Shown here one piece after another: positions 21,235-47,588 of a stretch of DNA of 64,000 bases. The stretch comes from Balanoglossus misakiensis (Eukaryota > Animalia > Hemichordata). The stretch covers positions 3,675,434-3,739,433 of the forward strand of contig CM082593.2 of NCBI GenBank assembly GCA_040954595.2, given 5' to 3'. Below the pieces are notes generated by a model. It had not been told where the DNA came from. It was given only the letters and a program-made list of their open reading frames with translations, and made no database searches. The position numbers were made by a program, and so were the translations under genes. Positions within the stretch are counted from its first letter, which is position 1. Each line of letters opens with the position of its first letter.

Positions 21235-24200
21235 CTATTTGGAGGCAAAGAATAAAGAATCACATTATATGAACAAGACAAGATGGCCGCAAGGGTATAT
21301 TCTAACATTGCACACCCTGTAGTAATCACCCTGCACAAACTGACTTTCTGTTAAAGAATATGCCCAACACTTACTGCAAGTGACATCATTGAGAATTTTG
21401 CCGTCCGGGCACGAAATGGTGGTGAAGCTCTCAATGGATTGTGGGTCAGCTGTAAAGCCGTCCGTATTGAACTCGCCGTCAAAGGCCGCATCCTCTAAGA
21501 CCTCGTCAACTGACCGTCCGTCCTCAGTTGGATTCGGGCTGTTGATAATAAACGAATAAAGAAAATATCTGACTGAGCCATGCCACATAAAAATTGGTAA
21601 TGTTAGGATTACCCACAATGCTGTGCAACCCAAGTCCACCAAAGTCTACCAACGACGACCGATGAGGAAACATAGATACTTACTTGGTGCCAAAAGAAAA
21701 GTCAAGAGCGGCCGTGGTGGCAGTGTCGTCTTGGCGTTTGCGTCTTAACGTCCCGTCTGGTAGACTCTCGTCGCAGACAACCTGAGTACTGGAGAAGTCG
21801 CAAGCGTCAGAGCCGCAGATTCCAAACAGCGAATTCAGGTATTCCAATTTCTCGATAAATGCCGCCTTCAACAAACTGTTGGGTTCCCTCTCACCGTTGG
21901 GGTCGTCGGGGTCGCACTCTGCGACCGAGAACTCCATGCTACCTTCCGTGTGGCAGTCGGCTGGATCACTGCCTAATCATCACAGAGAAAAAACAGAAAG
22001 AGAAATTAGTGAAGCTTGATAAAAAGTATCATAATGCCTTGATGGGAAAGGATTAAAGACTGAAAGAAGTTTAATATACAATATACGCACTCATCATCTG
22101 GTGTGATTTTTATCCCATACCTGCACATCCGGGGAAAACGAAGGGTTCATCCGGAGCCTCCGGATCCCACACTCCCTCGCTTCCGCATGCGTAGTAAGGA
22201 GCTGGCAGCACAGTGAACACTTTGCCGACGTTGCATCCGATGGTACAATAGAGACCGTACTCCCATGTGTCGCACGTCTTGCTGCCCTCTATAGGTGGAG
22301 ATGGATCGGGGCAATCGATGGCTGAGGAAACAAAACAGAAGACAGAATGTGAATAGCGGCCTCTACATGTATGCTAATATTCAAAACAACACTTTCTTCC
22401 TGATTGAATACTTGATACAAAGGGTGTCATAATGCTGAGGGTGTCGGTATACTCACGAGTGATGTAAAGCCTAAAGCTGCAAGCAGCCGTATTGTTGTTG
22501 GCATCGTACGCCACACAAGTCACAGAGTAGACTCCCCAGGCCACTGTTGCGCCATTTTCGATGGTACACGAAACGTCGACGACGCCCACATTGTCCTCGT
22601 AATCTAATTCACCGTAGTCAACCACTGTCAGCCGACTGTCGGGGTTCACGATGCGCACATCAGCAGGACATGTGATGGTTGGTGGCTCCTTGTCTGTGAA
22701 AATCGGGCGGAAAAATATTGAAGTTCATGTTTGGTTGCCATATTGGATATTGCATTATGGGTAAATCATAAACCTACGTGTGATGTCAGAAGTCAGGAAA
22801 TACCAAAAATAACCACATCAGATTGATCACAAAATTTATGAATTAGAATTCACATACCCCCACATGGACAACCTTTGTAGAAACTCTCATCTGGGCACTG
22901 GTGTCCGCCACAGATGGACGGTCTGATGACATGTGTGCAGCCGACGCGGTAATACTGACAGTATATCCATTCCACAATGTCTCCTTGCTCGTCACGGACG
23001 CGACAACCCCGCGAGTAAATATCGCTGATTTCGCTGGCATCGAACACCCTGCTGTGCATGTTGAATTGGCTGATTTCGCCGTGGAACGCCAGGCTGTCGT
23101 CGCTCGACTCGTAGGGGCGTCCGAGCATAATCTTCAACCTGTTTGAGACCAAAAGTGCCCATTATTTTGACAACAGTCAGAGCGACACTGTACATTAACA
23201 ACTTCAGTGATGATTATAAACAAATAAACTTGTTTGTATCTGCCTTGATCTCTCAGCGGTGTTTTATTGAGCCCATAGGGCAGAAATTTACTGCCAATCC
23301 TGAAATGTCCACAGCTCGAAGCTTACCAATCTGATGTTGTTTCTCCAGTCCTGACATTGTCCCTGCTGATTGCGGCCTCTCCATCGATGTACCAGGTCAA
23401 CGATCCTGACTCTGAGTCCCAGGTCAGAGCCAAGTGGTGCCACATCCTGTCCTGAATGTCGTCAAATGGTTCGCCGGATGGTAACTCATGGGCCACTGTG
23501 AAATCAGTGCTGGGGAAGGGAAAAATTCACAAAATGTACCGTCAATGTACAAATGTGTGAAATGTATATGAATTTGATGAATCAGTCTCCACATTTAGTT
23601 CGTGCTACGAGACATCTTTACACTTTCACTGATCTGTTATGACTTGTTCACCAATCAAATTTAATTTCTGACTTATAACAACAGAACTGTATTACTTTCA
23701 CGATGCAACATGCGTGGTGATTGGTTATAAAGCAAGACTTACAACTCTTGGGTGTCCGACTCGATGACCTGGAATGGAGTACCGCCGCTGTCTTCACAGG
23801 CGTATCGGATCCAAAACATGAAAGTGTATGCGGAGGCACTGAAAGTCTGGGCTGGTGATTGGGCGTAGGACGAGTCTTCAGCACAGAAGTACAAGTCGAA
23901 GTTCGGACGCTTCTCTGAAATGATACACAAAAGGGCAACAGAAGACCAATCAGAACTGGGGCAATAGTATGCACCTGCCAGCCCTGGTGTACTAATTGGG
24001 CTCTTTTACGAATACACTCTCTCAAGCTAGTAGAACATTTGGCTATGTACACAAAGTGTAGATTGGGTGTTTTTTCTCTAGATAACCAATAGCAATCATC
24101 ACCTCTAAAATTTGCGTTGTACAAATTTTACGAAGATGAAGTTGCATTTTTAGTTTCTGACAGGGATTTCACAGTTGGTGATACTCTCTGAAAAAAACGA

Positions 24201-27200
24201 GACGAGTACGACTTACTCTTGCTGCATGTCGGACCCGAGTACACGGGCGTGCATCTACATCGGAAGCCATCAACCTTGTCAATGCACGTGCCGCCATTCT
24301 CGCACGGGTCACTCTCGCACTCATTAATGTCTTCCTCGCAGTGTTCGCCGTCATAACCGTCCGCGCACTCGCATTCGTAACTGCCGTACGTATTGTGACA
24401 CGTGGCTGCATTTTCACATGGGTAGTCATTGCACTCATTGACATCTTCATCGCATGTCGGTCCAGTGAAACCTGTGAACAAAGTATTTCACCGAAATCAG
24501 CATATAATTTGACCCTAAATTTCCCCTCTAAATCGACCCTTAAGTATTTCCATCTGTGGGTGGTTCATTTAGATCACTGCCTACATTTTATCAAATTGTG
24601 ATATTTCTTCCAATATTGCCATTATGTTGGATCATTTTAATGTGTTGAAAGTAGATATAAATAAATTAGATTTTACTTACCGAGTGCACATTCACATATA
24701 AATGAGTTGTGTCCATCAGTACAGGTTGCGCCATTCTTGCAGGGATCATTTTCACAATCATCAATGTCCTCCTCACAGTATGGACCAGTCCAACCTGGGG
24801 CGCAACTGCCAACAAAAACATATCAGGAGTTAAGTTAAGAGGGAAAAGAGATTTGGATTTGATTTGAATCAACTATGGGTCTCAGCAAAGGAGGTGTGTT
24901 CCAGTTGATAAAGTATAATTACGAAAATTGTCATATACTTGTAAATCGGGACTTACTTGCATTCGTATCCATCAACAATAGTACTGCAGGTGCCGTCATT
25001 TTGGCATGGGTCCGATGAACAATAATCTTCTAAGTTTTCGCAGTCAGTTCCACTGAATCCCTCCTGACAATCACACTCGTAGCCATTGACCAAGTCAATG
25101 CAGGTGCCATTGTTCTGACATGGCTCAGACACACAGTCATCCATGTCAATCTGAATAAAAAACCCTCAGTAATTTAATTAAATCTGAATGTAATAATTCC
25201 AACATAAATGTACTTGAAAGTAGCCGAAATGTTGTCCAGTTTGAATTCAATTGACAATTTTGTACTTGTCAATCCAGAATAAACCGAAAAATGTGAGAAA
25301 ATTACAAATAATATAATATTTGAGATGAAACTTCGGTTCAGAAGTGGTCGGTTACTGACCTCACAGAAGTATCCGGTGTAGCCGTCTGGACAGGTGCACA
25401 TGAATTTCTTGCAGGAACATGGACCTGGGGGAGCTGGCAGTGCTGTGCATACACCACCATTCTTGCATTCATTGGGATCACATGGGTCATCGTCTTCTAG
25501 TTCACAATGGTCACCTAGAAACAAAACAGAAAGTTATGTTAGTACTAGCATAGATTGAAAGTGTCATGTGAATACAATGTAGATGAGTGTTGTCACATAT
25601 ACATGTACACACTGAAGATGCCAGTGGGTTGTGTGTGTGTGTAATGTGGTCTGTGTGTCTTTTGTGTTACATCATACCTGTATATCCATCTTCACAGATG
25701 CACTCATAACTGTTGTCGCCATCTCTGCAAGTGCCACCATTTTGGCACACCACGTCCTTGCAGTCGTCATCGTCAATCTGGCAGTGTCGGCCGCTGTAGC
25801 CCGTCGGACAGCCGCAGGTGTACCTATTGTTGCCGTCGATGCATGTGCCACCATTCTCACATGGATCTGGGTCACAGTCATCTGTAGAGGAATATTCAAC
25901 AAGTGGGGTGAACAAATATGAATGATCATCAAAAAATATTTTGGCCGCCGTAGTATAGAATAATGATGTCATAGTTCTTGCGTGATTCTCGTCTAAAATC
26001 CTGGTAAAGTGACAACTTCATGACCTTACCTATGGGAGTTTCACAGTATTTTCCAGTGTAATCTGGTTGACAATAGCAATCCACATCGTTGATCCCGTCC
26101 ACGCAAACTCCGCCATTCTCACACGGGTCACTCTCGCAGTCGTCGATCTTCTCCTCGCAGCGGTCGCCACGGTAATCAGGCGGGCACTCGCAAATGTAGC
26201 CATCTTCATGGTCGTCCGCCACCACGCATGTGCCGTTGTTCAGGCAGGGGTCCCTGTTGCAGGGGTCGTGGACTATCTCACACTGGTCGCCGCAGTAGTC
26301 GGGCGGGCAGATACAATAGTAGGACTCGTCCGTGTCAACGCAGGTGCCCCCGTGCAGACAAGGATCACTGGAGCAGCTGTAGCTCTTCTCACACCGCACA
26401 CTGTTACAGGCATTAAAAATATAGCGTCAGCGACACTGTAGCTCCCATAAAACATTCACATAGCACAAATGTCTCACTTAAACCACCGAAACCAATGTAT
26501 GGCTGAAGAATCCGAATACTTACCCATAGTACTGTGGTGGACATTCACAGATGAATGTGTGAGGACAGGATCCAGAATGACAGGTGCCTCCATTCAAACA
26601 AGGCTCAAAATAGCAGGCATCTGAAACGTCAAAAGTTCAGTATTTGTGATTATGTAATTTTTACAGTGACTTAACATTTTTAACGCAGCCACTAGCATCA
26701 ACATGAACTACAGTTGAGAAGGAATCGACCAAACATTTGAACACTGACCGACGCAATCATCTGCACTAGTGGATCCTTTTCCAAGTGTCGTCTTATTGTC
26801 TTCACATGGCTTGCATCGTCGCTTGCCCTGTTCGTCTTGATAGAAGCCATGCTCACACGGACGGCATGGCTGCAGTCCGGTCCTGGAGTGGTAGCCCGGT
26901 GGACAGTAAGCTGTAGAAGTGACCAATTCGCATTGACACATCAGTCATGTGATGTAACGGTCATGTGGCCAATATGAGACAGATTTCAGTGACCACGTCA
27001 TAGAATAACAAGGAAAACTTACCACTACAGTCATTGGAACCTGGATGACTGAACAGCCCATCCTCACAGGGCTGACAAGCCATGTTTCCATATCCTGCCG
27101 CGAAATAATTGGCCGAGCAGATGTCACATGGTAGCATTCCATCCAGAGAGTAGTATCCATGGCGACAAAGAGCTGAGCAGAGAATACAAAAAAAATCTCA

Positions 27201-30200
27201 GATAAACTTGTTCAGAAACTGTCTTAATCTGAACAAACTTTCTTTATAATAAATTGTATCCAAACTGCATCGTGATGGTGATGGAACTTACGAATGCATC
27301 TGTCGTGGTGTTTAGTTCCCTCATGCCTTGTGGAGTGGTGTTCCGGACATGACTTGCACGACCTCTTGCCAGCTTCATCTTGATAGTAACCAACGGGACA
27401 GCTGACACACTCGCCGTCCTTTTCATACGTTCCACGAGTACACTTCACTAAAATAACGTCAAAACAAACAAATCAGTTTTTAACATATTACCCAATGTAG
27501 GCACCACCAAAAATTGTATTAAAGTGGAGCTTAATTAAAGGAAAATACAGTATTCTCCAATGGGTAAATACCAATGGAGAGTGACTGAAAACAACACTCA
27601 CAGCAAGCGCAGTCCTTCATGGTGTATCCCCGTGGACAGTGACAGCCACTCTCTATCAGCTTGAATTCCGTCTCCTGGGTGACGTCGGGACAGTACTCCC
27701 ACAGATTGGATTCCTCGGCAACGACGAGATCCTTGTTCTGCCAGTCTCCTACTTTCTCGGCTACACTGTCTCTGCACTCCCTCAGCTCGGTGCAGTCCAG
27801 CTGAGTTCTGTCACCAGTGACCACCAACGTGAAACGGATGTTGACGGTATACTATAAAGAAAAACATAAGGTACATGCATACCAATTTTCAAATCTATCT
27901 GACCTTTAGTTGTTGAGTTTCTTAATGTTGACCAATTTCACAAGTGTTCGATGTCGACGGACATACAGACCTGCTCTTTGTTAGTTTTTAACTTGGTTTA
28001 TACTGAAGTACTGTACATGTAAATGTAACACAATTTTTCATTGGGTGGTAACTCTTTCTGATACTGACTCAAAAGCAACACACATTTTCATTGGCTACTC
28101 ACTCTATCTTTGAGGTCAGGGCAAATACACGCTGGTTCATCACATTCTTCAGAGTTGCGCGAGCCCCGGCCCCTCCTTTTGGAGTTTCCACTGCATTCAT
28201 TGCTCTTCGTAGACTTCTTTTTCTCTCCACTCTCAACATCACAGTAACATTCGCATTCCTCACTGCTTGCTCTGGAGTTCCTGCTCGCTCTGGAATTTCT
28301 CCCGCGGCTGGTCGCGTAAAACCCGCATACCCGTCCGCTGTTGTTCTCTTGGCTTGAACGGCGGCTTGACTTACGGTCAGCTGATGCTGAAGATCGGGAA
28401 CCACTTTCCCGCTCCCGGCATTTGGGGCGTTCATCTTCTCCTGAACAACTTCTTCCTCTGCCGTTATTCCCGGACGCCCTGCTGTTACGGTTTGAATTGC
28501 CATTGCCGTTGTTGGAACATTCATTTGAACGGCTGTTAGTGTTACTACTACGGCTGCCAGTGCGGCTTCCAGTGTCATCTTCGTTACTGCTACTTCTTGT
28601 GTCGCTGTCATCGTCTTCTGAACACCTGCTTCCTCTGCCGTTATTCCCGGACGCCCTGCTGTTACGGTTTGAATTGCCTCTGCCACTGTTGGAGCATTCA
28701 TTTGAACGGCTGTTACTACTACGGCTGCCAGTGCGGCTTCCGGTGTCACTGCTACTTCTTGTGTCGCTGTCGTCTTCCTCTGAACAACTTCTTCCCCTGC
28801 CGTTATTCCCGGACGCCCTGCTGTTACGGTTTGAATTACCTCTGCCATTATTTCCAGAAGCCCTGCTGTTTCGATGTGAATTGCTACCTCTGCTGTTGGA
28901 ACAGCCACTTCTGCTACCGCTGCTGCTACTGCGCCCTCCGCAATCGCACCGTCTTCCGGATTCCCGACTGCTGCTTCCTCCGCTGCTACTTTCCGTATCC
29001 CGACTCTCGGTGCTGCTCCTGGTTCCTGAACAGTCGCAGTCATTGCTTCCAGTTCTTGTGTTCCTTCCACTTCTTTCCTCCCCACTTTCTGAACAGTCGC
29101 AGTCGTCTCTGGATGCCGTGTTTTCCCGACTACCAGTGCTTTCCCGACTTTTTCCTCTTTCCTGGCTTGCCCGACTATTTCTGCTATTTCTGCTATTGCG
29201 ACTATTCCTGCTATTGCGACTATTCCTGCTATTCCGACTATTTCTGCTATTCCGACTATTCCTGCTATCCCGACTCCCCGTGCTTTCCCGACTTCCCGTG
29301 CTTTCCCGACTTCCTGAACTCTCCCGGCTCTCTGTACTCCCACTTTCTGGCACCGTTGGCTAAATATAACAAGAAAACACAGAAATTCACAGAATTCAAA
29401 TCATGCACCATTTACAATTTCATTTCTCACACTGTACATTGTATGAGGCGTACTTGGTGTACACATCTCACCATGCCCATATAAGTTGATATTTTGAACA
29501 TTAAAATCTATATTTATACCTCTTCTATTTTGACAACTTCCACAACAACACGAAGGTCGACATTCTCTTTAATGTCATCACTACAGTCTTCTAGCAAATC
29601 TGCCTCGTCGATGACCCTCTGTATCAGTTCGTTGTACACTGCCATGCAGTCCTCTCCAATTTCACAATCGGCAGAGTAGTTGGCAGACACTACGACTCCA
29701 CAGTCTGGGACCTCATACGCTGAAGCGAAGGGTAACAGAACAAGTTTCATCAGGTTGAAAGGATAATTGAAAGACAGAACTCTCAATATATTGAAAACAA
29801 AGGATGATAAAGTCTTTGGTAAAGTTTAATACAATTAAGCATATTTCGATCGACAAAATTATTTATGTGAACGTACGTGCACATCCAGGCACTCGGTTGT
29901 TAGGCAGCCATCCATTGACATCAGAGCAGACATAACTGTTTGATCCTGGGATCAGCTCCGGCAATGGCTGCACAAAACCATAGCCTTCCTGGCAGCCCAC
30001 ATTGCAGGAGAAGCCACCTCCAATTGGAGCGGCACAGGTGATGTCTCCATGTGGGGGCAGCATCAATGACCATTCTGGGCAGCCCTTCACTGAAATTACA
30101 GAAGTAATAACTTCAACTCATCTGTATTAGACTTTCTGATTGGTTATTGAGCCGTGTCATGTCAGCAAGGTGGAGTTTAAATCTAATTGGCCGAGTGACA

Positions 30201-33200
30201 TTCAACTGATAATAAAAGCAAAATTTATGATAAGAGAGGTACATTTTTTCAATTACAAGTTTGCGTTTAGATTAATAGTGAAGGCTGAGAGTATTCAATG
30301 CAGCTTCTGAAGCCATCAAATTGTCAGGTGCCTGTTCAAGGCGTGGCCTGGTCAAATACAAGACAGTAGCTGAGTTTTGACTTACGAACAACGATGAGAC
30401 CGAACCAGCATTCACCGACGTTTCCTGCTTCATCATAGGCGGCCACCCGGACTGAAATATACTGGAAAGTCCAGAGGACCAGTGTCTCTTGTATGTACTC
30501 AACACGGACCACTCCGACGTTATCAGTAGCCGTCACTGAATCCAAATAAGTCTGCAAAGTGACATTGACTGATTGCTCTTCTGTCTCTATGACGACCACC
30601 GCTGGACATTCGATCTCTGGAGGTTCAACATCTGTTGGAGAAGTAGCTTTCTGTGATTATCATGTATTATCCTTCTGTCTGCTGTCTGTCTCCGTTTACA
30701 AGCCAATTCAGGTTTCCATCACTTAACGAATGTTTAACTTGAAATCCAAATCTATTTCTAACAGAAGTGAATGAAAAAGAAACAAAACATCTATTCAGAA
30801 AGACAAATTCTTACCAACACATGTAGGGACCTCTCCACTCCAGTACGGTTGCGGAACGACCACATCTTCAATCGTGATGTCTTTCAGGCAGTCAAAGGAT
30901 GCCAGTGTGATGCCCAGAGATACGTAAATGGTACTGCTAGGATCAATTACTATAGTGATTTCTGTCGGGATGGTGCCATTCGCAATGGAGGTGACAAGGG
31001 CAGTATAGCTGTGGCCTGCTGCCAGGTAGAAGGACAGCCAGCTGGGAACGTCTGCATCGAAACATGCTGTGACCTCTTCCCATGCATCAGGCGTCACGCC
31101 CATGGGGATGTCGACGCGCACGCCTTGCCTGATGGAGTAGTCGTACTGGATGTAATGCACCTGGATGGAGTTCAGGCGATCTTGTACCTCGCCGGTCATC
31201 TCCAGGCCGAGCATGTACAGAATCCGGCAAATGCAGAAGTCCACGTCTCGAATCTGCACCTCCAGATGCTTGAGGTCAGCAGGACCGCTGACCAATGCGA
31301 GGAACTCGGTCATCAGGGCACCGTCCAGGGCGTCGACGATGTCAGCGTACAGGGCTGGAAAGTCGATGGCGTCGATGAAAGTCACCCTGATCTCCCGCAC
31401 GCAGTCGTTGACGACGAGGCCGTAGGATTCTACGACCTGAACGAGACCTTGGCTGCCGTATTTGAGGGTGTACGCAAACCGGTGCAGGTCTTCGGGTCCC
31501 GAGTAGAAAGCTGAGATTCCGGCTAAGATCGCGTCATCAAAGCAGGTCCTGATGTTCATGTCCAGAGCTACAAAGTCGATGTGCCACTCAGGTTTGAATG
31601 GAAGGTAAAGGATGCCGTCTCCAATGTCGGGGCCACTGCCTTCATCCCCACCATCGTTGTCGCCATTGTCGTATTTGACGTACGTCACTTCGATTAAAGT
31701 CAGGCAATCCAGTACGTCAGTCGGCACAGTTACAGTTACGCCCAGCAAGGATGGAATTTGGCAGACGCAGAAGTCTTCTGTCCTAATGTACGATTCATAC
31801 GGCTTGAGATCGGCAGGACTGGTGACATAACCATCGAACGCTACCAGAAGTGTGGTATCTAGGCAACCTCTGACGCCGTCATACAAAGCTGTGTAGTCGA
31901 TCTCGTCAATGTACGTCACGGTGATCTCCCGGACACAGTCATTGACGCCTAGGCCGAACGACTGCAAGATCTGAATCACAGCCTGGCTTCCTTGTCGGAG
32001 AGTGTCGGCGAAACGGTGGAGGTCGTCGGGTCCGGAGTAGAGGAAACTAATACCAGCCAACTGCCATCCATCATAGCAGTACCTTATGTCCATGTCCAGG
32101 GCTACGAAGTCAATACGCCACTCAATCTCTGTACCGCCGTCACCAGTGCCGGGATCACCATCTCCGGGGTCCGGATCACCACCACCTTCTCCGGGGTCCG
32201 GATCTCCACCACCGCCATTGTCACCACCGCCATTGTCACCACCGTGATGTTCCTCGTATGTGGTGTACGTGACTTGGACACCATCCAGACAGGTATTCAC
32301 GTCACCTGGCAGTGCTACGTTATAACCGAGCAGGGTCGGAAGCTGGCAGATGCAGAAGTCTTCCTGTCTGAAGTTACTTTCATACTGCACCAGATCAGCA
32401 GGGCCCGAGATGGCACTATTAAACAAGGTCGACAATGTGCTATCCAGGCATCCTTTGATGTCGTCGTACAACACCACGTAGTTGACCTCATCGACATATG
32501 TGATTGTGATCTGTTGCACGCACTCATTGGTACTTAAGCCAAACGCTTGCAGTAACTGAATAATGGTCTGGCTCCCGCTTTTGAGCGCGTCGCCGAAAGG
32601 TTGCAGGTCTTCAGGTCCAGAGTATACAGCTGAAATGGTCCCCAAGGTGAGACTATCATAGCAGTTCCTGATTGCCAAATCCAGAGATACAAAATCAATG
32701 CGCCACTCGATTTCAATACCACCATCACCACCACCATCACCTCCGCCACCTCCAGTTGAATATTCAATACCATCCAGACAAGCTTCAATTTCTGTGCTGA
32801 ACTGATCTGCGGAATCGGCGATCAAAACTGCCAAGAATCCCTCTGCGTCCATTGTGCCCTCTGTGAATTGGTTCAAAGAGTCTGCATATACAGAAGGAAT
32901 TGTGAAAGTACTCCCCTCAGGGTAGCCCTGACACACGTTGATAGCATTCAGTAGAGCCACTTTTTCAGGTGGAAGAGTGATCGCTTCGTCCGCCATTATA
33001 CCTTCGACGTCTATCGCGCCAACGCAAGCCTGCTCCTCCTCGGTCAAGGCGTCAAGAGCATCATTCGCTAAAGCATCGACAAACGCCCTTACTTCGTTGA
33101 CGTCACCATTTGGGTTACTTATAATGACGTTGTATTCAGCGTCGTACCCGAATGGAAATGAAGACGGAAATGTTACAGTGCCATCTGTTATATCTCCTCC

Positions 33201-36200
33201 CCAACATACCGACACTTCAGCAAGTACCTCAAAGACTTTTGGTGGTACTGTGTGAGCCTGCCTTCTCAATCGCTTGAGACCACCGGTGGAATGGATGCTG
33301 GTCACAGATCGTCTATTCCGAGCTGGATATTCTGTGTTGTGAAAATGACCAAAAAAAAAAAAAGATCATGACCATCGCAATCAACAAAAAGTAAGCATAT
33401 CCACAGAAATCGGTTATCCAGCGACAGACAAACTATAGTGACCAACTGTCAGGCACTCACCGCGTTCGACAGGCATCACATGATAGCCATCCACAGTGCA
33501 CATGATAGACTGGTGGGGTTTGGGGCCGTAGCCTTCTTGGTCACACAAGAAGTGCAGTTGGTTGCCGACATAGTACTTCCCAAACATGCTGTACTGCTGG
33601 CCGTCATCTGGGCTGCCTGGATCTTCACATGTTAACACTGCATGGGGAGCATGAAAAAAATAGTTGATGATTGATTTCTATTGGAAGCGCCATTTTTCTA
33701 CTTACGTTTCCCTTTTTCATAAAACTGGCGTTAGTTTTGATAATCTTATGTATGTAGTATAAGTTGGAAAAATGTTGACTGCGGAGGTTATTTAGAAGAG
33801 GTCAACTTACATTTACAGTAAGGCACTGAGTCACTCCATGAACCATCTTGTTGACAAACTCTCTCTGACAAGCCAATCAGCTCATAGCCAGGATTGCACT
33901 TACAGATGACGCGGTCACCCACACGCATGTCTTCGTAGTAACATTTGGCATGCTCAGGGAGTGATGGGTGGCCACAGGGAATTCCTGAAAATAATATCAA
34001 TGATTATGATTTATGAATCGACGTCGGAAACACACATACATGTACCCCCTCCGGTACACACAAACCAAAATTAAGTGTCGAAGAAAGAGAGTAAGTAGTC
34101 TATGTTCTTACGTTTGCATTCTGGTACAGGACCAGTCCAGCCGTAGCTATGGTAGTCGAGTCTTTGACACACAGACACTGCAGGGCCGTACAAAAGATAC
34201 CCATCGTCGCAGCTGTAACTCACACTACTGAGGTAGCCATAGTTACCGGTACCAGGGTCCGTAGCCACCCAACTTCCATGTTCAATATTCGGTGGGTCGG
34301 TGCATGTTGCCACTGAAGAAAAAATCACAAAAGTTGAAACACATTAATTTACGACCTAGACAGTTTTTTTATTTTATTATTCAATCTCAAAGCATACACT
34401 CAGTTTTTACTTAGACACTGTCTTGACAGGAGCATAGACACTTTCACTGTTACCTTCTATGCTTGGAATTTCAAAGTCAAAAGTTCCGTTGGCTGTGCAT
34501 GTCAGTTTGTATTCGCCAGAGACACTGTAGCTGGTCTGAGTGACGATCTCGAAGAAGAAGTTGTACGGAATGCGCACTGACGATTCTCTGTACTGGCACC
34601 CACAGCCCGGGGCGTAAACGGCAATGCCGAAATTGAAGGTTACGTCCAGGCTGCACATCACAGCTGTAGACAGGGAAGAAAAACACTGACATGAGACCAA
34701 TTGTGCCATAATATATATGGTGCTGCATTAGCTACAATATTTGAAGAACTTTACAGGCAAATTTTTGGAACGCAATTTTTGATGGCCATATGGTGAATTT
34801 CCTCATTTGACGTTACTTACGAACACAGGTTCTGTGCAAAACATAGAGACTGCGGGCATCAGAGCCATCCTCCCCATCAGGCAGAAGGAATCCATTGACG
34901 CCATCCGCATCAAAGAGAGTGTATCCATCATAACAACTGCACACGTAGGAACCATCTCTGTTTTCGCATTCCTGGTTGCACAGGTTCAAGCTGTCGTCGG
35001 AACACTCATCAATATCTATCAGGATGGAAAATATGAATATTTAAAATAATTGTTGATGACAGGTACATTTATTAAATTAATAAATTCATTTTCAGCACGG
35101 TCTTGAGCGGACACTCACCAATGCAAGTGACGGGATCTCCCTCGGGGTGGTGATAACCATCAGGGCAGCTGCAGTCAAAAGTTCCTGGTAGATTGGTGCA
35201 TACTTGCGTTGAATCACAAGGTGCGTTTTCAGTGCACTCGTCAATATCTGGAAAGTGTCAACAAAAAGCCAATACTCATGAGACTTCATATCATATGCAT
35301 AGGCTTTATCACTTAAACATTCTATAGATATCTATAGAATTGTGCAGTCTATTCTATTCATGAGACTTCATATGCATAGGCTTTATCCCTTAAAACATTC
35401 TATAGATATCTTCATCTGCAATCATATGATAGATATTACTGGTACATAATCCACCTCAAGCTTGTGAAATACATGTATATCCTTACCAACACAAGATGTC
35501 AATTCGTTATCCCAGCTGATAGGGCCTGAACAGGTTGACGTGGTAACAGAATCGGATGGCAGTCTGAATCCATCCTTGCAATGAAGGGTCACTGTATCAC
35601 CAACTTGGTAGTCATCTTCGGGGTCCAGATAAGAACTCACTGAATCAAAGAGAGGCTCGATACAGTACGGGCCTGTACAGAGAAATAATAATAAAAATAA
35701 TAATAAAGAATAATTGTAAAGAGCCTAATCATACATGTATGTTAACTGTAAGGCATGGAATAATAAACTTCAGATAAAAACAAAACTATTTCCTTGTGAT
35801 TTTATCTCATTTTTCTAAAAAAATGATAATATCTGAACACTCACTTGAACACCTTGGCGGATCATTGGACCAAGTTCCATCACGTCGACAGAGCGCGATA
35901 CTCCAACCGAGAACAGATTTACCATCATTGCAGCCGTACACAACAACACTGCCAAAAACTGTTGAACCAACTTCTACAATGAAGCCTCCCTCTGGAGCAA
36001 CCGGCTGAGGGCATCCGACAGCTGTAAGAAGAAAACACAGTCAGTGAAACTGACACTTTTGAAGCACGGACTGAAACCGATGGAATGACACACTTTTGTC
36101 CCTCACGTACCTGAGCATTCCTGAATTGGGCCCCATGTGCCGTCGGCTTGACAGGAGATGGTAACTTGTCCAAGATCTGCTCCGTATCCATCAACACATT

Positions 36201-39200
36201 CATACACGGCTAGATCTTCAAACAGGTGAGTGCTTATGCTGACAATATAGCCATGGAGAATGGGTGCAGGTCGACCGCAAGAAATTCCTGTCAGGAAGAG
36301 GCATAGAAATTCTGCATTTGGCCCTTTGAATACCTTATTTTTTGCTATCAAAATGTGCTGCAACATTTTTTTTCATTTTCAGAAAATTTTCCTCATTTTC
36401 CCATTAATTCTTGACCAAGCGGAAAATTTGCTGTTGTCTGCAGGTCTTGATAAAAAAAAAATGTAAAGCTTTGATATCAATTTGGTGAGAAATGACAAGT
36501 TGATGTTCTGTATAAGAATATGAGATGGTCCAAGGCATTTTAGAATCAAGGCATTCCAAACATGACATTACAGTGAACTAGACTAAAAGTATGCAAAATA
36601 CTGGCACATACTGCGGCATCTTGGTGGTCGGGTGTTGCCATGGAAATCCCAATGTCCGCAGAAGTCACAGGTGACACTGTCGTAATCTGGATCGTCTAGT
36701 ACAAAGCCTGGTGCACAACTGAATTGGACTGTGACTCCATAGGCTGTATTGGTTGTGTCAATGACAGTGCCCTCTTCCAAGTCAAGAGCTGGGCAATCTG
36801 TTGATAATGACAGGAGAAAATACACAGAGGATGATATAGAACACTTGGGCAGATCGATCAATTAATCAATTAACAAGCATTGAGAAATATTCCTCACCTC
36901 GTGAGTATCTAGCTTTGAAACCGTCTCCTTGCTTGTTGTTATTGCTGTAAAACTTGACGAAAAGATGACCCTCTGCGGACCTGACAGTCGCTGGTTTAAT
37001 GTCACCGTCTGCACCTCCAGTGTGTTGATCGATCAGAACCTCATCATCTTCTTCAACGTTATTGTAAACCTGAAATATTTGGATAAAGTCAAAAATGGAC
37101 ACTGAAGCAGCAGAGGAAATTGGTAATTATTGTTCTTTACTTGCCGGACACACGAATACCGGTACACCAAGTTTGTAACTTACACTAATGTAGTCATTCT
37201 CCTTCCTCTCCTCCAGCTGGAAGTCGTCGAAGGACAGCGTCATTCCGGACTCATCCGGATCTGTGATGATCCAGGTGCACAACAGCCGGTTTCTGTATTG
37301 GTTGATGGGATAACCAGGTGAGGTGATGAAGCCGCATTTCTGCTCCAGCTCGATACCCCTGCAGCCTGCGGAACATGACGAAAAATGTGGAATTTGCAAT
37401 CAGAAATGAAGATGATTTGTGGTGAGAAAGATTCTTAAAGCCCCATGAGCTGCCACTTTTTGCATTTCTGTATTCATCATCCATTACTGTCTGAAATTAA
37501 CCCAAATTGTCATGTCAGTCACATTTTTTTCAGAAATAAGGAGAGAATGTGTAAAAGAACACTTTTCCTTAAAATTTAACTTTTACCTGATTTGAAGGAG
37601 AACAAAAACCCTTCGTCGTTCTCGGTAGCATCCGAATGGAATCGTACGGCCATGTGCCTCTTGGAAGAAATGAATGGCCCTGGTAAGTAGTCGTTCCATC
37701 GGTTTCCAGACAGTTCAGCGATGATGTTCACGTGGGTGGAGGCTGAATTTCCATCATGGAGATTCACGTAGTCGTTGATGGGTTCGGTCGCAAAGACATC
37801 ATGGAACTGTGATCAGAATGGATAGGTATTGTAAAATTTCACATAAGTTGATATTAGAGCAATAGTCATGTGTGGGATTTCTACTGCTGGGATTTGATAA
37901 TGGGAGTTTTTATGTTGTCATTGTTGTTACAAAAGCTACAAGTTATATGGCAGGTGGGATTTGAAAACATGGTGACTAGAATCTGTATCATATTATAATT
38001 ATGATAATGAAATTCCAAAGTAAAAAGTCTTCATGCAAATAATGCGATGGATTTTAACAATTTGTACAAAAAAGCAAAACACACACAAAGGTGCCAAAAC
38101 TGGGGCTTTAAATCGCATGGAGGTGTAGCTACTGGGGCTTTAAATTGTCACTGACCTGCAGAGTGACCACGGTGTCATCAAAGCACACATCAGGGTCACC
38201 GTTACGGGGGCTGTCGTCATCGCAGTGCGAAGGTCGGTCAAACTTCAAATGCCAGACGCAGTCCTCCTCGTGGGGGTAGTGTTCGTAATCCATGAATCCT
38301 TGGCTGTAGAATTCCTGGGGCTCCAAGGAAGTCAGGAAGGTTCCACCACACTGGGCTTGAACTGCAACAAAAATGATCAGAATAGATGAAGCCAAAGTAA
38401 GTTAATTCTTGTCTTGAAGTGACACCAAGTGTTTGCTATTCCTTTATCAAACATGTTCCACAGCATTCTATTGATTTTGTCATTGATATATAATTCAATA
38501 GACTTAGGGTTCAAAACTATACATCTATGTACATAGAAATCCATAGAAGTTCTACAAACTTCCATAGAAATTTTGTAGACTATGGAATTTTCATCAAATA
38601 TCTACTCCAATTACATAATTAGGGAAGGCATGATGTGATGTCATTAAAATTGCTTGATAACAGAACCCTATTGACTTACGTGTGTGCCATTCAATTTTGA
38701 ATCCGTTGTACAGTCCGTCAGTGCTACCATCCGTTTCAAACGTCACAATGACCAGGTGATTGAAAGAAGTGAATACATGTTCTTCATCGCTCCAACCTGA
38801 CGCCTCTGTAAGCACCATGTCGTCCAGAGTTCCACCATTGTATATTGTCACCCAGTCATAATTCAACTCCAAATCCAAGTCCGTTAGCTGGAAAAAAAAA
38901 TCATTGTCAGAACTAGGAAAAAACAGTTGGATCGTAAGTTTGTAGTCTGTGTTTCAAATAAACTGACAGACAACTGCATTGGTTATCTTGGTGTTGCATA
39001 ACGTAGTGACTCATGTTTGTGAAACTCATACATTGTGTATTTTCAATCAAAATTGGCTAAAATTGACCGATGAACCAGAGTCATTGAGTCAGGGTTGGTT
39101 AAGTCTGTATAACAAAATTGTCACAAATATCGTCTTGAAACTTTTGGGAGCGAAGACAATATTCCGTCACTTACCTCCAACACAACTCTGGATCCCACTG

Positions 39201-42200
39201 GTGCCTTGATGTACCACTCACAGAACGCATTATCCGGATAACCTCCTTCAAATCCAGGACTTGTGATAACTCCAGACGTGCCCTCTTGAATTCCACCACA
39301 TGCTTCTGCAAATTTTGAGATTTTAACAGAACAAGTTCAAAGTGGGATGTTTGTTTTTTCTAAAACTATAGAAATTACCATCATGACAATTATACTGTTA
39401 CGAAAATTAATGATATTACTATGTATACCAATGGGTTTGGACTGAACCATGGTGGAGAAAGGTTTGAGAAGCAATGACTTTTTGGGGGACTGTTCTCACC
39501 TGAGCATCCTAACTCATCGGATCCATCGGAACAATCTCTGTCTCCATCACAGATGAAAGACGATGGAACACACTCGGCACCATTACCGCAACGGTAATAG
39601 CCTGAAAGAAAACCAATGACATGTTATACTTTGTTTCTGTTGATCGAAACTATATATTGCACAAGTCTGCACGACCGACAAAACTGCATGGGTTATATGT
39701 TTGTAACCACCGACCTGAGAGACATGATGGTATCTCGCAGATGAAGGACCTGGGGTCATCGCAGTTCCCAAAGTACCAGTCGGGGTTGATGGACAACGAG
39801 AGGTAGGCACAGTCTCCCAAGATGTCGTTGAATGCAGACGACGCCCACTGCCCTTCCATAATGTTGGCCTCCATGCCGTTTGCGTACACGAAACTGCCAT
39901 CATTCCCTTTGAAACCTGGGAGAAAAAGATATAAAATGGAATTGTCAATGGGATATGTAATATTGAAAAAAAGCTACATGTTCCCTTTTTTGAGTTCAAC
40001 CTTCTAAATTCAACCCTACCATTCAATTCATGCACCCATACTCATCCAAGAACAAAGTGAAAAGTTGAACATTATGTCTATTGATGTAAACAGTGAACAA
40101 TCTGCACAAACCAACAAAAATACCAGGATTTGAGGTCTGTGAGGGTCATAAGAGTGGCCCAATAATTTTTTTTTTAAATTGTTGAAACACAGAACTACAG
40201 ATAAAATAATATGCTACTCACCAATCCAAAGTGAGGAGTCTCCCAGAGTCACAACAGTGGCAGCGTACACAGCTATTTCAAGATTTGCAGCAAAACTGTC
40301 TATATTTGCCAAGTATCCTCCATAGCTGTCATTTAATGCAAGAAAAAAAGAAAAATATAAAGTTTATTCAATAAATTGTGATAGCTACTCAAAAAAAATT
40401 GTGAAAATTTTACCAAACGTTACATATATGTAGCTCTAACCAATTACCTTGCACACGTCACGTTGGCTGCATGCCAAGATGAAGTAAAGGAAAAATATTT
40501 CACACACTTGCTGCCTACAAGAACCCAACCTGCAGAAACAGAACATATCAACAGTTATGTCTGATATACTAGGTCTAATATGACAATTCAAAACAAAACA
40601 AACCAGAGTATGGAATATGAATATGTTAAAACAGGTATAAATAATGTGCCACAAAAAGTTCATACGTGTACTTTTCAATGTCTGTGGGTCCAAGCCATTT
40701 CTGAACATTTTTTAATTTATCATGACTTACCATCAGGGCAAGTAAGGGTTATTGTTGTTGACACGGTGAGCTCAGAGTAACCAAACGACACAGAGAACTG
40801 TAGATACAAAAGCAAACAAGAAGAGAGACATAAGTCAGATAAAATGTATGTAACTTCATAATACAGGCAGTAAAACGGCGCAGCCAAGCTCTGCCACGTG
40901 TAGTTAGCTCCCTGGCTGGGTACCCCCCCCCCCCCCCCCGACCACGCCCCCTTTCTCTATGCGTGTCCTCTCAGGCCGGGGCTGTGGATCTGGAGCAACT
41001 CTTGACGACTTAGAGAGACCACAGACCCCAGGGCAATATTTCGGTAAGTCTCACCAACCTGGTTAACCAAGCATCCGTAGCATTTTCAACCGAGACCTTC
41101 ATGGGTTTAATAAACCACGGTTACGCTGGGCGCCGCCATTTTGAAATTCCCGCAGTGAAATGAATTATGGGAGGTAAATAACCACTGTCGCTTAGATACG
41201 CCGGAGCCATGACAACCATATCCTCGTGCCAGAACTGGGTTTCGTTTTAAAATACAGCAAAACAAATCGGTGCCGTTTGGCTATTTTTATTACAACATCA
41301 TTCTTCTCAACCACAATATCGCTCACACACACAAACCGTAACCGTGAGAGCATAGTAGTGACGGATTAGTGAACGAAAAAGGGCGTTGTTGCATTAAGGC
41401 CCAGAACTGGATTAATCCGCAGAAACATCGCCTGTGACCAGGTGAATGATTCAGTTTGCAAAAGACCTTGGCAAAAGACTAATTTCGACCATGAAAACAC
41501 GACAGCATCAACTCTGTTGATTTTGACCTTTGTAAATTTGCACGTATTTACAACTCAAGTTCAGGATTGGAGCGGCCACACCCTGTCAAGGTTATGGGTG
41601 GTCCTTTTGAATTTTTCCCAGGGATCTGAACGATTGAGACAAAGCGGATTTTCATCCAGCTTCCCCGCCAATTATTTTATACCTAGTGAAAATTGATGTA
41701 TTTTGTTGGCGCCGCTTTTTTCTTGTAATAACGAGTAAAATTTGTTTGAATGAATAAAACAAAACTTTTTACCATCATGATGTATGCAAGATCATGAACA
41801 AGAAATCAGTCGAGACGATAATTTATATTTTAAGTGTGTCTGAGTGGCCCCCTCCTCCGCCTTCGGTCGCTGAACCCATACGGCGTTTCGCAGCAAAGTT
41901 AACCCTTAGCAACACGTACGCATACGTATATTCCCTATGGGCTCTCGAACCAGTTCATAAACATGGGCGTATCCGACTTGCACGACAAAAAAGTGCCCAT
42001 TGTTGATTTATCCGTTGTTTGTCCTTCAAGTCGCATACGACCTAGACTGTGTTCAAGTGGTCAAGCTTTTGTATTCAAGTTTTCTTTGGCCATGAGCTAG
42101 TGCGGGACTTGACATTGGAACGCTTTCAGTCTTAAAAGAGGTGAACTTTTGTCAATGTTTCGAAGAAAACGTGAACCGGTGTTGTGATCAAACATTAAGT

Positions 42201-45156
42201 GTCAATTTTCCATTTGAAGTGATTTTTAAGACTTTTTTTTCATCGCGAATATTACCTTAATCATGAAATGACGACGGTTGATCTGAAAAACTTTAAGCTT
42301 ATATCATCGGGCTCTCAGACAGTTACTCCATGGGCATTTCCCATCGGATATTTACCCTAACCCCAATCCCAACAGTACGAAATGATGGACCAGAAGTCTT
42401 CAAAATGGTTAAGAAAAAGTTGCAATTGAATGCCATAATGACAGAGAAGGAAAATCACATGCAAGTGTTGCCCAACAAACCCATTTACATGGGTTTACAC
42501 GGTTTATACAGCTGTGCCAGTGTTAGTTTAGGAATGTAAACGGGCCGTTGTGATGTGAACCAGAGAACGGGGTTGGCATATTTGATTTGCCTCCTAGCAA
42601 TGAAAATACTCCTTATGAAACGCCTTTGACTGCAACGACACATTTCGACACCATAGCAAGGTTACATTACAGTAAGTAGAGCGTGACAAAATGAAGTCGG
42701 CGACTAAAGCATGAACACAGTTGGAAAAGACAGCAACTTCCACCGGAAAGCAAAGCACGTCTATATCTCCCACTAGTCGGTTGCAGAATCTCTCTGCTTG
42801 ACAGCCGTGGCCCTAGAACACACAAATCAATTTAAGAAACTGGCCACGATCACGAATGTTCAAACAGCCGGGGAAGCTAACAACCTTTTTTCCCGACCAA
42901 AACTCGTAAACCTCATTTTAACTCAGTCTATGCCTTCATTTCACGAAGTGTTTTTCTCTCTACTTGACTGAGCTCAAATAAAAAGACGTTTATGATCCAC
43001 CTCTCAAAAGAGATTACTTATACAACAGGAGGGAGTTTCCCATCTATAAATCAATATTACACCCGAAAACTTTATTGGGCACTATAACAAACAATTCACA
43101 ACTTTGGATACGCGACGCCGTCACAAATTTCCCGTCTGCACCTTAAAAAAAATCCACGATCCATCATAGTCATTTTCATGCGGCGTGACTATTTTCTGCA
43201 TGTGTCCGTTGACCCCTTTGATTTCTACACGCGTGTTTTGTACATAGCAACAAGGCTGACATCCTATTATAATGTATTACATCGCAACAGCTTACTCTAG
43301 GTGTCGCCCAATCCAATACAATGCTCGGACATAATAAAAGCAAGCTTTGTGTGCATGTGGGCACTATTATTCCCTTGTCTTTGTGACCTCAGATGACATC
43401 AGCAGCAGCTATGTCTGCAATATTAACGAGAAGCCCGCTCAACCTTGAAGAAAAAGGTCGTTTGCCCTGGGCTTTCACAATCGCGGGAAGTCCCGCTTTT
43501 ATGGCTTAGCCCATAGATACCAGGGGAAAACGGGACTGGGTATCTATGCCTAGCCACGAATATGAAACTTTAAATCACAATCCTTCCTACACTACCTTTT
43601 TAAGTCAACCTGCACACTGAGAAATCACAGGTATCACATATTCCTGCTTTCTGGAAGATCTGTACACGTCAAGAAAGTCGTTAGACAAAAGTGTCATTGC
43701 CATGGCCGACGTCAATGAATGTATATTGAATACCCTCTTCTTATCTGTTTCTAACTGAAATGTATTGCATGTCGGGACATGGTTTCCGACAGTATTCTGA
43801 AAAACCAATTCAACAAAAATTCTTATACGTAATTCTGGCAAAACAGTTGTAAAAGTTGAAGGATCGTTGGAAGCGATAAAGTTGTCTTATTCGCTGAAGT
43901 CGATATGACAATTATCGTTGTTTAGGGTCCGCCGAATATATTTCCACGTTGGGGCGCGTTGAGAGTAAAGTTAATGCTAGTGGGCACAAGTACGTCCAGA
44001 ACGGATCGATGGTGTCGAGATGGATAGGGTATTTTTCGATTAAGGTGCAATGAACCATGGCGAAAACAGCTGTTCACCTTGGTTTATTACCTTCGCCCGA
44101 CTGGGGCTCAACTTCTAGACAAAGTAGAACACGGTCCACACAGTTAAAACGAAGGAGAAGACATTCTGTTCTGCATGTTTCAAAATGCAGTTTGCAGTTT
44201 CCGCGAAGGAAATGGGATGAAAGACGAATCTAACACTCGGCACTTTCGCCTTATATAAGCGAGTGATATTCCCCATATAAGATTTAACTCATGTATTCTA
44301 TTTTAAAGTCGCCTAAATAAGAAGCAACTGTTGTAACATTGCTTTATATGGACGTGTGACCACGGCATACGAATTTGTAGTGCAAGACTGACGCAAGATG
44401 AGCTTCGCTGAAACGTTGAGGGCAAACGTTCAACCAGAAGATGATGGTTGGAGTAGCTGACGTGAGTAGGAATGTGAGAGAGCCTAGCCTACCAGTAAAG
44501 TAAACTTTTATTAGGTAATAACGCAGAGTTAGAAGACGCCCACACTGAGTTTCCGCTTTCATCTGTGATCAAAACTTGAAAAGTGGTCTTTTTATGTTCA
44601 GGCGTAGCCCAGGACTCGTGAATGAATGATAAGTGGCCTGTAAGGTCGACGAGATCTGATTTGTCACCATGAAGTGCGTTTAGACCACAGTCTACTCGAG
44701 AAAAAAACAAGTTTTGCTCGAGTATCTCTTTGCAAACAGCTCAGATGTAACATACGAGATTATAGGTCTGTGTCAACAGAAGTTGGGCTACTTTCATTTA
44801 ATTTCGAGTCAAAACACAGCTAATGGATGGATACAGGACAAAGGAACTTTTCCATTGCGTTTGGTGTGTTTTGATATGAAATTAAACGAATGTGGAGCGA
44901 CTTCTGTTTGCACAGACCAAAGAAAAAGGTGTCTTAGTCATGAATCAACAGGTGGGCATATCTACAGAACACGCTTGCATTAAGATAATGAACTTTGCAA
45001 ACTAATGCATATCTAAGGCAAAAAATTGTTGTACCAAGTAACACACACAATATACGTAAAAACTGTGTTACTTTAAATTCTTACCGAGTCAGCTGCTTGG
45101 ACCCCGATGAACAGCACCAGGCAGGCTGCAACCACTGCGCAGCCCAGCCGCTGCAT
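18401..45156 (-). CDS. uif: Uninflatable-like giant type I transmembrane protein, paralog A (about 4,318 aa, 55 coding exons)
   Basis: Exons traced with GT-AG boundaries and consistent phases (total 12,957 nt, divisible by 3): 45085-45156, 40731-40797, 40448-40529, 40222-40325, 39715-39915, 39500-39601, 39175-39305, 38680-38887, 38156-38361, 37587-37806, 37184-37365, 36898-37069, 36612-36797, 36111-36287, 35845-36021, 35487-35672, 35119-35247, 34821-35015, 34454-34663, 34112-34312, 33811-33984, 33461-33637, 30815-33331, 30386-30631, 29877-30089, 29520-29719, 28103-29359, 27602-27851, 27292-27447, 27023-27172, 26749-26910, 26524-26620, 26030-26400, 25678-25881, 25360-25514, 24957-25150, 24681-24805, 24217-24471, 23743-23914, 23327-23509, 22858-23138, 22457-22693, 22121-22321, 21684-21972, 21375-21538, 21073-21234, 20749-20904, 20441-20602, 20093-20254, 19862-19894, 19601-19714, 19297-19419, 19067-19169, 18583-18871, 18401-18415. 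The order CTL-LDLa-CUBx3-sushi/EGF-HYR-GCC-EGFn-LamG-HYR-GCC-EGF-TM matches Drosophila Uif. The symbol means family-level similarity; orthology is untested. Confidence 0.9.
21375..23914 (-). CDS. Paralog A pentraxin/laminin-G-like domain, HYR, sushi-like domain and furin-site module
   Basis: DLYF...YTFMFWIRY...[13 protein letters not shown]...YIDG...[14 protein letters not shown]; [12 protein letters not shown]...[11 protein letters not shown]; GTLRRKRQ. Confidence 0.9.
24217..27447 (-). CDS. Paralog A three GCC2/ephrin-receptor-like Cys repeats and an array of about 12 Notch-type EGF repeats
   Basis: [19 protein letters not shown]-type units, then (D/N)(D/E)C-x-S-x-PC-x-NGGTC-x-D...Y-x-C-x-C-x-x-GY-x-G-x-x-C units. 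Confidence 0.95.
28103..29359 (-). CDS. Paralog A 1,257-nt Ser/Arg/Gly/Asn-rich low-complexity exon with CxC motifs
   Basis: Acceptor ttcttgttatatttag at 29360 and donor AGA|GTGAGT at 28103, phase 0-0, 419 open codons ([13 protein letters not shown]...[10 protein letters not shown]), in frame with both neighbouring exons. Confidence 0.85.
29171..29320 (-). repeat. Coding minisatellite: 9-nt (Ser-Arg-Asn)n and 18-nt (SRESTG)n
   Basis: AG(T/C) (C/A)G(N) AAT units repeated about 9 times, with only synonymous differences. Confidence 0.9.
30815..33331 (-). CDS. Paralog A 2,517-nt exon: twin furin-type sites, unrecognised acidic repeat domains, and the C-terminal strand of sushi 8
   Basis: Acceptor acaacacag at 33332 and donor G|GTAAGA at 30815, phase 1-1, 839 open codons. 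Starts [25 protein letters not shown] and ends [13 protein letters not shown]. Confidence 0.9.
33461..36797 (-). CDS. Paralog A sushi/CCP x4, Ca-binding EGF x2, sushi x4 (10 phase 1-1 exons)
   Basis: C-x-x-P...Y-x-C-x-x-G-Y...C...W...P-x-C patterns; DIDEC at the start of exons 35119-35247 and 34821-35015. Confidence 0.93.
35275..35411. repeat. Intronic direct duplication, about 60 bp x2
   Basis: tcatgagacttcata...tgcataggctttatc.cttaaa.cattctatagatatct occurs twice. Confidence 0.85.
36898..39305 (-). CDS. Paralog A three CUB domains (6 exons)
   Basis: CGG...ITSPGF...[11 protein letters not shown]...FETDGS...GFKIEW; CGGTFL...CVWHL...[12 protein letters not shown]; CRG...ITSPGYP...CTWII...[17 protein letters not shown]. 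Confidence 0.93.
39500..40797 (-). CDS. Paralog A C-type lectin domain and LDL-receptor class A repeat (5 exons)
   Basis: [40 protein letters not shown]...LWIG...GDCAYL...[15 protein letters not shown], then [36 protein letters not shown]. Confidence 0.93.
45085..45156 (-). CDS. Paralog A first coding exon: signal peptide
   Basis: Encodes [24 protein letters not shown], followed by donor TCG|GTAAGA. Phase 0 matches the acceptor at 40797. It is separated from that exon by a 4.3-kb intron. Confidence 0.75.
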
Positions 45157-47319: not shown

Positions 47320-47588
47320 AAACACACAGAAACTTGAACCAAAAAAGGTGTGAAATGTTAGGTTTTATCCGTTTTATAAGACTTTATCCGGTTTATGGTA
47401 ATGTTCAAAGTATTAGCTTTGGTTATCGGATCATGTCCAGAAGCCATCTTGATTGTCATAAATACACAAAGAAAATTGAACCAATAGAGGTGAAATGTTG
47501 GGTTTTATCCGTTTTTATAAGACTTTATCCGGTTTTTGTGATGTTGGAAGTATTAGCCTTGGTTATCGGATCCTGTCCAGAAGCCATC
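47320..47588. repeat. Tandem duplication, unit about 140 bp x2
   Basis: gtgaaatgtt.ggttttatccgtttt.ataagactttatccggttt...agtattagc.ttggttatcggatc.tgtccagaagccatc occurs twice. Confidence 0.9.

Follow-up and report, generated by a model that had tools for sequence, protein, structure and literature searches.

Introduction

In the usual view, extracellular mosaic proteins of animals are linear chains of modules that exon shuffling has put together, and two described systems come closest to the gene considered here. Drosophila Uninflatable (Uif) is listed as a transmembrane protein with a C-type lectin, three CUB, eight CCP, two FA58C, three HYR and EGF domains (PMC3340373), and SVEP1/Polydom as a protein with a core of sushi, HYR and ephrin-receptor-like domains, EGFs and a pentraxin (PMC12549020). 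In a stretch of 64,000 nucleotides from the acorn worm Balanoglossus misakiensis (assembly GCA_040954595.2, contig CM082593.2, positions 3,675,434 to 3,739,433, forward strand; hereafter the window), a predicted gene resembles Uif in its C-type lectin, three CUB, eight sushi/CCP domains, EGF array and transmembrane helix, a likeness of domain lists, and shares with SVEP1/Polydom the sushi-HYR-ephrin-receptor-like core, the EGFs and the pentraxin. One exon of this gene, called the host gene below, carries an array of helical repeats, and we are highly confident that this array is nested inside the loop of a sushi domain. An earlier reading of the window from its letters alone (the sequence-only reading) had picked out the repeat but overlooked this context, in which the array interrupts a sushi domain and lies behind furin-type sites.

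Results

The array exon and the split sushi domain

The array lies in a minus-strand frame that stays open over 856 codons (30795-33365). The exon boundaries, with the acceptor at 33331 and the donor at 30815, are both in phase 1, and between them follow a furin-site linker, nine helical units and the closing strand of the host sushi domain. This open frame, flanked by AG/GT ends, bears out at the level of a predicted gene structure that the region is free of introns, as the sequence-only reading had it. A heuristic exon finder split the exon in two at 32881-32912, which was rejected, as the frame is open and the alignment to the Ptychodera flava protein introduced below is free of gaps there. 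In the same heuristic list the exons of the host gene have a median size of 177 bp (45 candidate pieces), the longest measuring 255 bp if the array exon and a second insert exon are set aside. The parts, all on the minus strand, are as follows.

33461..33637: N-terminal part of the host sushi domain, Cys1-Cys3; profile positions 1-47 of 57, E 8.7e-8; 72.5% identity to P. flava
30815..33331: array exon, 2,517 bp, single, phase 1-1
33309..33320: furin-type site 1, RNRR; P. flava equivalent RDRR
33261..33272: furin-type site 2, RLRR, directly ahead of u1; P. flava equivalent RSRR
32982..33254: diverged unit u1, from alignment and profile scores
32760..32981: diverged unit u2, from profile-profile comparison with the core units
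32256..32714: doublet 1 (a1 32493-32714, b1 32256-32492), with a Gly-rich linker ahead
31668..32129: doublet 2 (a2 31908-32129, b2 31668-31907), with a Gly/Asp/Pro linker ahead; a2 is the modelled unit
31140..31595: doublet 3 (a3 31374-31595, b3 31140-31373); b3 has lost both outer cysteines
30840..31124: diverged unit u9; 64% identity to its P. flava counterpart, matches the core weakly
30819..30842: closing strand of the host sushi domain, Trp...Pro-x-Cys4; profile positions 49-56, the sole sushi match in the 856-aa frame
30386..30631: HYR exon after the split sushi domain; Pfam HYR E 7.4e-7

The sushi profile used here has 57 positions and was built from 15 intact sushi domains. By this measure the array is placed between Cys3 and the Trp...Cys4 strand, the latter being encoded by the eight codons with which the array exon ends; the host sushi domain thus has its four cysteines and the conserved tryptophan in order, but is not a contiguous module of ~60 aa. 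A scan of the array frame for R-x-[RK]-R returned two sites only, both before u1 and none between units.

The same loop in four genes

The split was found in all four genes examined, namely the host gene, its tandem paralog in the window, the uncharacterized P. flava protein XP_070544274.1 (3,371 aa) and LOC100378937 of Saccoglossus kowalevskii (4,825 aa). The P. flava protein, whose public model starts within the fourth sushi domain, is the likely ortholog of the host: it likewise has the split sushi domain, two furin-type sites and the unit types u1, u2, a, b and u9, and is 40% identical to the host over the array exon versus 55-86% over most other exons. In LOC100378937 the domain order and the split point in the sushi domain preceding HYR are as in the host. 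Across the four genes the N-terminal half falls on profile positions 1-47 (in Saccoglossus, 2-44), with the C-terminal strand on positions 48/49-56. Cys3 and Trp are 6-10 aa apart in four intact domains, 955 aa apart in P. flava and 1,820 aa in Saccoglossus and, by hand count, 843 aa in the host and 41 aa in the tandem paralog.

Furin-type sites occur in this loop in all four genes; Saccoglossus has one (RKRR) located after the cargo, and the host and P. flava have two before the array. In the paralog the loop holds two RRRR sites and is free of cargo:

61014..61642, minus strand: split sushi domain of the tandem paralog, two RRRR sites, cargo-free; predicted exons 61481-61642, 61260-61277 and 61014-61121

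The middle exon of this loop (61260-61277) is a predicted micro-exon of 18 bp. The repeat profile found no unit in the paralog loop, and the contigs over this split sushi domain are short pieces, none of which spans the whole, with no joint listed. The Saccoglossus loop holds about 1,800 aa of cargo that is mucin-like (20.8% Thr) with expansin-like and SEA-like modules and has no helical unit. Its expansin-like modules lie at residues ~1270-1470, ~2110-2365 and ~2540-2740; the first, which is the one of the three similar modules that was compared with expansins, matches the bacterial EXLX1 (E 1.3e-12). A horizontal origin of these modules is possible.

Since its contents differ among the four genes, the loop behaves as an exchangeable cargo slot. 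The simplest history would be that the furin-site loop is older and that cargo was added independently, an order of events drawn from four genes and no rooted tree.

Homology among the units

Three doublets of one a and one b unit each, built from six homologous units of ~75 aa, form the core of the array, as the sequence-only reading had proposed. All 15 pairs of core half-units score above every one of 2,000 shuffles, with z 28-56 for pairs of the same type and z 7.3-13.0 for a-versus-b pairs, and the doublets are 46-56% identical to doublet 1. The three starts of the form EW(R/H)IDFV(S/A)LD are present, their Glu codons lying at 32708, 32123 and 31589; the positions given earlier are those of the Trp codons that follow.

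Of the roughly nine units counted in that reading, the six of the core are firm, and the outer three hold weakly. With window data alone, u1 and u2 align with each other (z 8.2), and no outer unit matches the core (best z 3.2). A leave-out profile that includes the P. flava units gives the outer units 7.7, 8.6 and 6.7 bits, scores reached by 1, 0 and 2 of 1,000 shuffles; when u1 and u2 were both left out of the profile, the shuffles reaching their scores numbered 23 and 6 of 1,000, respectively. Compared with the core profile to profile, u2 matches at E 7.8e-5, u9 at E 1.1e-3 and u1 directly at E 0.043, u1 being linked to the core through u2 (E 1.1e-7).

P. flava carries 11 units with a core of (c-d-a-b)x2 that was recently duplicated (65-87% identity), versus nine units and a core of (a-b)x3 in the host. 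In a tree of the units, a units separate from b units (96/99) and the P. flava copies cluster among themselves, which argues for block duplications that took place separately in the two lineages; several forks of this tree are unresolved, and its join of c with d is flagged as possible long-branch attraction. Between the two species the unit types a, b and u9 are 39-64% identical (a units 55-61%), and neighbouring host domains 58-73%.

Cysteines and predicted fold

The description of the repeat as two-cysteine units needs amending: b1 and b2 have four cysteines owing to an additional CxC, and b3 has the CxC only. Both outer cysteines are kept in 19 of 20 units and both are lost in one, with no single loss; that they are kept or lost as a pair supports a predicted bond between the first and the last helix. 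The CxC is kept in all five b units, including b3, which is without the structural pair, and the c and d units of P. flava have one extra cysteine each.

For unit a2, AlphaFold2, given an alignment of the nine window units, returned a model with a mean predicted local distance difference test score (pLDDT) of 85.5 and a predicted template modelling score of 0.75, four of five models scoring above 81. It consists of a strand (5-7), five helices (9-18, 22-31, 35-45, 50-58 and 65-68) and a closing strand (74-76), in line with the helical repeat that amphipathic patterning had suggested. The unit is thus likely a small five-helix domain, probably stapled by a disulfide. According to the model, the terminal strands may bring the ends of a unit close together, which would fit a loop insert, and the last strand of a, running straight into the first of b, may let a doublet share a small sheet.

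Searches for relatives

Searched exhaustively with a profile, 1.84 billion representatives yielded XP_070544274.1 as the sole true relative (E 5e-144); proteins that come within 50% identity of one of the representatives do not show in this library, and its coverage of eukaryotes was not established. A second match (E 9.8e-5) was judged to be chance, as it concerns an unrelated repeat protein that lacks cysteine and has matches of bacterial Ig/Y_Y_Y type. A first homolog search (883-2,520 aa) was negative. The sequence-only reading recognised no named family, and none emerged from Pfam, NCBIfam, PDB sequences, Foldseek or VIA at significance. Pfam gave 0 families for the whole frame at E up to 1; the nine single units reached E 0.046 in Pfam and E 0.022 in NCBIfam at best, each in one of nine and below the curated cut-off. 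PDB sequence matches at E 0.55 (CadC, a CxC look-alike), 0.21 and 0.71 were all rejected.

Structural comparisons were likewise negative. Foldseek against PDB and viral structures gave 0 matches at E up to 0.001, and a wide comparison with VIA 0 of 48,161 chains at Z of at least 5; the best had Z 4.3 (root-mean-square deviation, rmsd, 3.4; 70 aligned), lower than the Z of 7-8 reported as typical for unmatched models, and a second look with VIA gave one of 24 at Z 2.2. In the ESM Atlas, a doublet query returned no usable match, and a u1u2 query only bacterial hypothetical clusters at 0.76-0.77, which is chance level. The absence of a structural match is no proof that the fold is new.

Contigs from metagenomes, viruses and prokaryotes were scanned for the pattern; of the 85, 42 and 29 matches, respectively, 0 were confirmed. 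Unit profiles run outside the inserts, over six frames of the window, XP_070544274.1 and LOC100378937, found nothing (best stray E 0.025), and a stand-alone donor gene or retrocopy therefore has no support within the window and the sequences searched. Horizontal origin of the array was considered and rejected, since GC content at third codon positions of the insert (0.43-0.75) is near that of other exons (0.35-0.71) and a prokaryotic relative was not found.

In the literature, with subscription papers and supplements outside the search, we came upon no account of the repeat or a split sushi domain and none joining hemichordates with Uninflatable; the main text of the hemichordate genome paper contains neither "sushi" nor "expansin" (PMC11175523). 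There was neither a significant family match nor any failure of the half-units to align. The repeat is a real, undescribed, lineage-restricted domain.

DNA support and selection

A DNA contig of 1,427 bases connects the HYR exon, across the intron, with u9 and doublet 3. Among the indels listed, the exonic ones are of 3 and 12 bp and in-frame, the 12-bp gap between alleles lying in a Gly-rich linker, and the intronic ones include 1 and 2 bp. Between doublets, non-synonymous divergence (dN) is 0.34-0.46 and synonymous divergence (dS) 1.33-1.73. The array DNA is real and under coding constraint (purifying selection).

The host gene and its surroundings

18556..45156, minus strand: host gene, predicted model from tBLASTn and exon mapping; stop at 18556
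45085..45156, minus strand: predicted signal-peptide exon, read from sequence

The predicted host protein begins with a signal peptide, a C-type lectin, an LDLa-like module, three CUB, eight sushi domains (the last one split) and EGFs, and continues after the split sushi domain with HYR, a SEA-like module, ephrin-receptor-like repeats, the EGF array, pentraxin/LamG, a second HYR block, a transmembrane helix and a cytoplasmic tail. The LDLa and SEA-like labels are presumed from the sequence pattern, with no library match, and the lectin and CUB exon fragments taken alone fall below the Pfam cut-offs.

A second large insert exon (28091-29359, minus strand) of the same gene sits within the SEA-like module that follows the HYR block. 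It is net basic, with 27% Ser, 17% Arg, 12% Asn, 21 Cys, six CxC and RNS tandem repeats, is much shorter in P. flava and is absent from the tandem paralog and LOC100378937; it may be a second cargo slot. The second SEA-like module has a furin-type site at 2859 of XP_070544274.1 and 4334 of LOC100378937, the corresponding stretch of the window being ~21700-21800 (minus strand). To judge by their motifs, these two proteins probably undergo more than one cleavage.

The tandem paralog lies upstream (minus strand, ~49394 to beyond 64000) and contains sushi, HYR, EGF, pentraxin and ephrin-receptor-like domains; one of its introns holds a short, high-copy interspersed repeat (~60866-61013), found in hundreds of contigs at very high summed depth. 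A direct duplication of ~150 bp was seen by eye in the intergenic DNA between the paralogs (47300-47600, minus strand). Downstream of the host and on the opposite strand is a single-exon rhodopsin-family G-protein-coupled receptor (13943-15175, plus strand; Pfam 7tm_1 E 1.1e-40).

Discussion

We lean, by a little, towards a reading in which an array of five-helix domains, held in the sushi loop of an Uninflatable-like membrane protein, serves as a multivalent binding arm after predicted furin cleavage. Sushi domains pair Cys1 with Cys3 and Cys2 with Cys4. In our model, the first and last cysteine of each unit would pair, and the sushi halves would re-close around the insert through these usual bonds. 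A proprotein convertase would then cut at the R-x-R-R sites, a step we consider probable on the strength of the motifs, and given the Cys2-Cys4 topology such a cut in the loop would leave both chains joined. The lectin/CUB half would from then on be held through Cys2-Cys4 only, and the array would gain a free N-terminus while staying tied C-terminally to the closing strand, like a side arm of ~87 kDa on a membrane-anchored stalk. There it could offer repeated surfaces for binding proteins or particles in the apical glycocalyx. Fly Uif is used as an apical-membrane marker (PMC6331135) and has a presumed cleavage site (PMC12867482). As the alternative cargo of the loop is mucin-like and expansin-like, and so likely environment-facing and glycan-binding, a multivalent binding arm appears the likeliest role, though we give that function slightly less than even odds.

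Among the rival explanations, an inert spacer or steric brush, extending or thickening the glycocalyx with no specific ligand, would accommodate the variation in unit number and order between species (9 vs 11), the variable length of the Gly-rich linker between alleles and the mucin-like sequence filling the same loop in a paralog. A spacer, however, needs no conserved types, and the units are folded, type-specific and kept at an identity near that of neighbouring domains; we regard it as unlikely. It is rather doubtful, too, that the CxC motifs of the b units form inter-chain disulfides, which would make the protein part of a cross-linked network of mucus or apical matrix: their retention in every b unit, even in b3, and the six CxC of the Arg/Ser-rich second insert speak for it, but a CxC may close on itself.

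A small carrier of lipids or hydrophobic ligands, or a membrane-binding bundle, would recall saposins or the units of nematode polyprotein allergens, a resemblance that lies in ~75 aa folded into five amphipathic helices with the first and last likely stapled. Such a role is improbable, given a single disulfide rather than three, units that are not separated by convertase sites and no Pfam match to such families.

The acidity of the array raises the thought of a calcium-carbonate-binding matrix module for acorn-worm ossicles, which are described as widespread in enteropneusts (PMC9490348). As the sequence-only reading noted, the array is acidic and Lys-poor (D+E 16%, K 1.2%), with a net charge of about -101 over 808 aa. 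However, the P. flava insert, at 14.1% D+E versus 14.2 and 15.9% in the rest of the protein, is no more acidic than the remaining ectodomain; acidity is no special property of the insert. The units are, moreover, folded and not of Asp-rich low complexity, so that a mineral role is very improbable. Finally, that the stretch is an artefact of assembly or annotation, or else a dead insertion, is extremely unlikely in view of the bridging contig, the alike nested P. flava ortholog and dN far below dS.

Several observations weigh against the binding arm and its cargo slot. The repeat is found in two species only; the fold model covers one unit and was built from a 9-row alignment, and a single-sequence model of the whole exon reached a pLDDT of 33.8. 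The columns that are conserved consist mainly of hydrophobic core, Cys and Gly, with one Asp and one Arg, so that they point to no evident binding site. The cargo slot rests on four genes, of which LOC100378937 is an automated model. The excess of synonymous changes among allelic single-nucleotide polymorphisms in the exon (10 of 22 listed versus 23% expected, p 0.019) comes from 22 rows drawn from 40 of 139 differences in a single sample. In addition, a host of ~60 aa with an insert of 800 aa runs contrary to the usual rule, since inserts have a smaller size than the host in 77% of domain-insertion events in a survey whose main text is silent on sushi or CCP (PMC13114784).

A more far-reaching proposal, to which we give somewhat less than even credence, is that the unit represents a helical extracellular fold not described before, which arose in one acorn-worm lineage, and the sushi loop a furin-processed, disulfide-locked socket by which Uninflatable-like proteins exchange whole side arms (helical repeats, mucin with expansin-like modules, or no cargo at all), so that the mosaic proteins become branched instead of linear. 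A sushi domain of ~60 residues hosts inserts 14-30x its size at one fixed loop, with cargo differing between paralogs, and this change of cargo would be a second route to architectural change. Pfam-type annotation misses the nesting because the split domain goes undetected. The unit is a confidently predicted small fold with no structural match, and it is young enough for its duplications to be traced in two species. The array is a tangible example of how a new domain is born, and the sushi loop a natural, tolerant insertion site; the array does not yet make a long-standing question testable.

How, then, does the locus compare with known systems? Saposin-like proteins have six cysteines in three disulfides; the unit differs in having 2-4 cysteines in another pattern, and no saposin fold is among the Foldseek and VIA matches listed. 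In nematode polyprotein allergens, tandem helical units are parted by convertase sites, whereas both sites of the array precede u1. The C8 domain of VWD assemblies has eight conserved cysteines, a pattern that the unit lacks, and gave no Pfam match; its fold, in MUC2 D1 (residues 212-292), was returned at Z 2.9 (rmsd 4.0, 65 aligned), which is background level. A weak echo comes from HAD proteins, many chains of which appear at Z 2.7-3.8 (rmsd ~3, identity 3-9%), at or below background: the matched ranges, which we take to be the C1 cap, are a helical bundle on a two-strand stalk, and no homology is claimed.

As to the host, the helical repeat is not among the domains listed for Uif. XP_070544274.1 and LOC100378937 have, unlike Uif, no FA58C domain at E up to 0.1, and they and the host have two HYR domains. 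SVEP1 is secreted, with a vWA start and a long sushi tail, whereas the host starts with a lectin and is membrane-anchored; it gave no vWA match, and its C-terminal EGFs are followed by a transmembrane segment. The host is thus Uninflatable/Polydom-like while falling outside strict membership of either. Domain insertion in itself is common, but the architecture found here is unusual, in that it is nested and probably branched.

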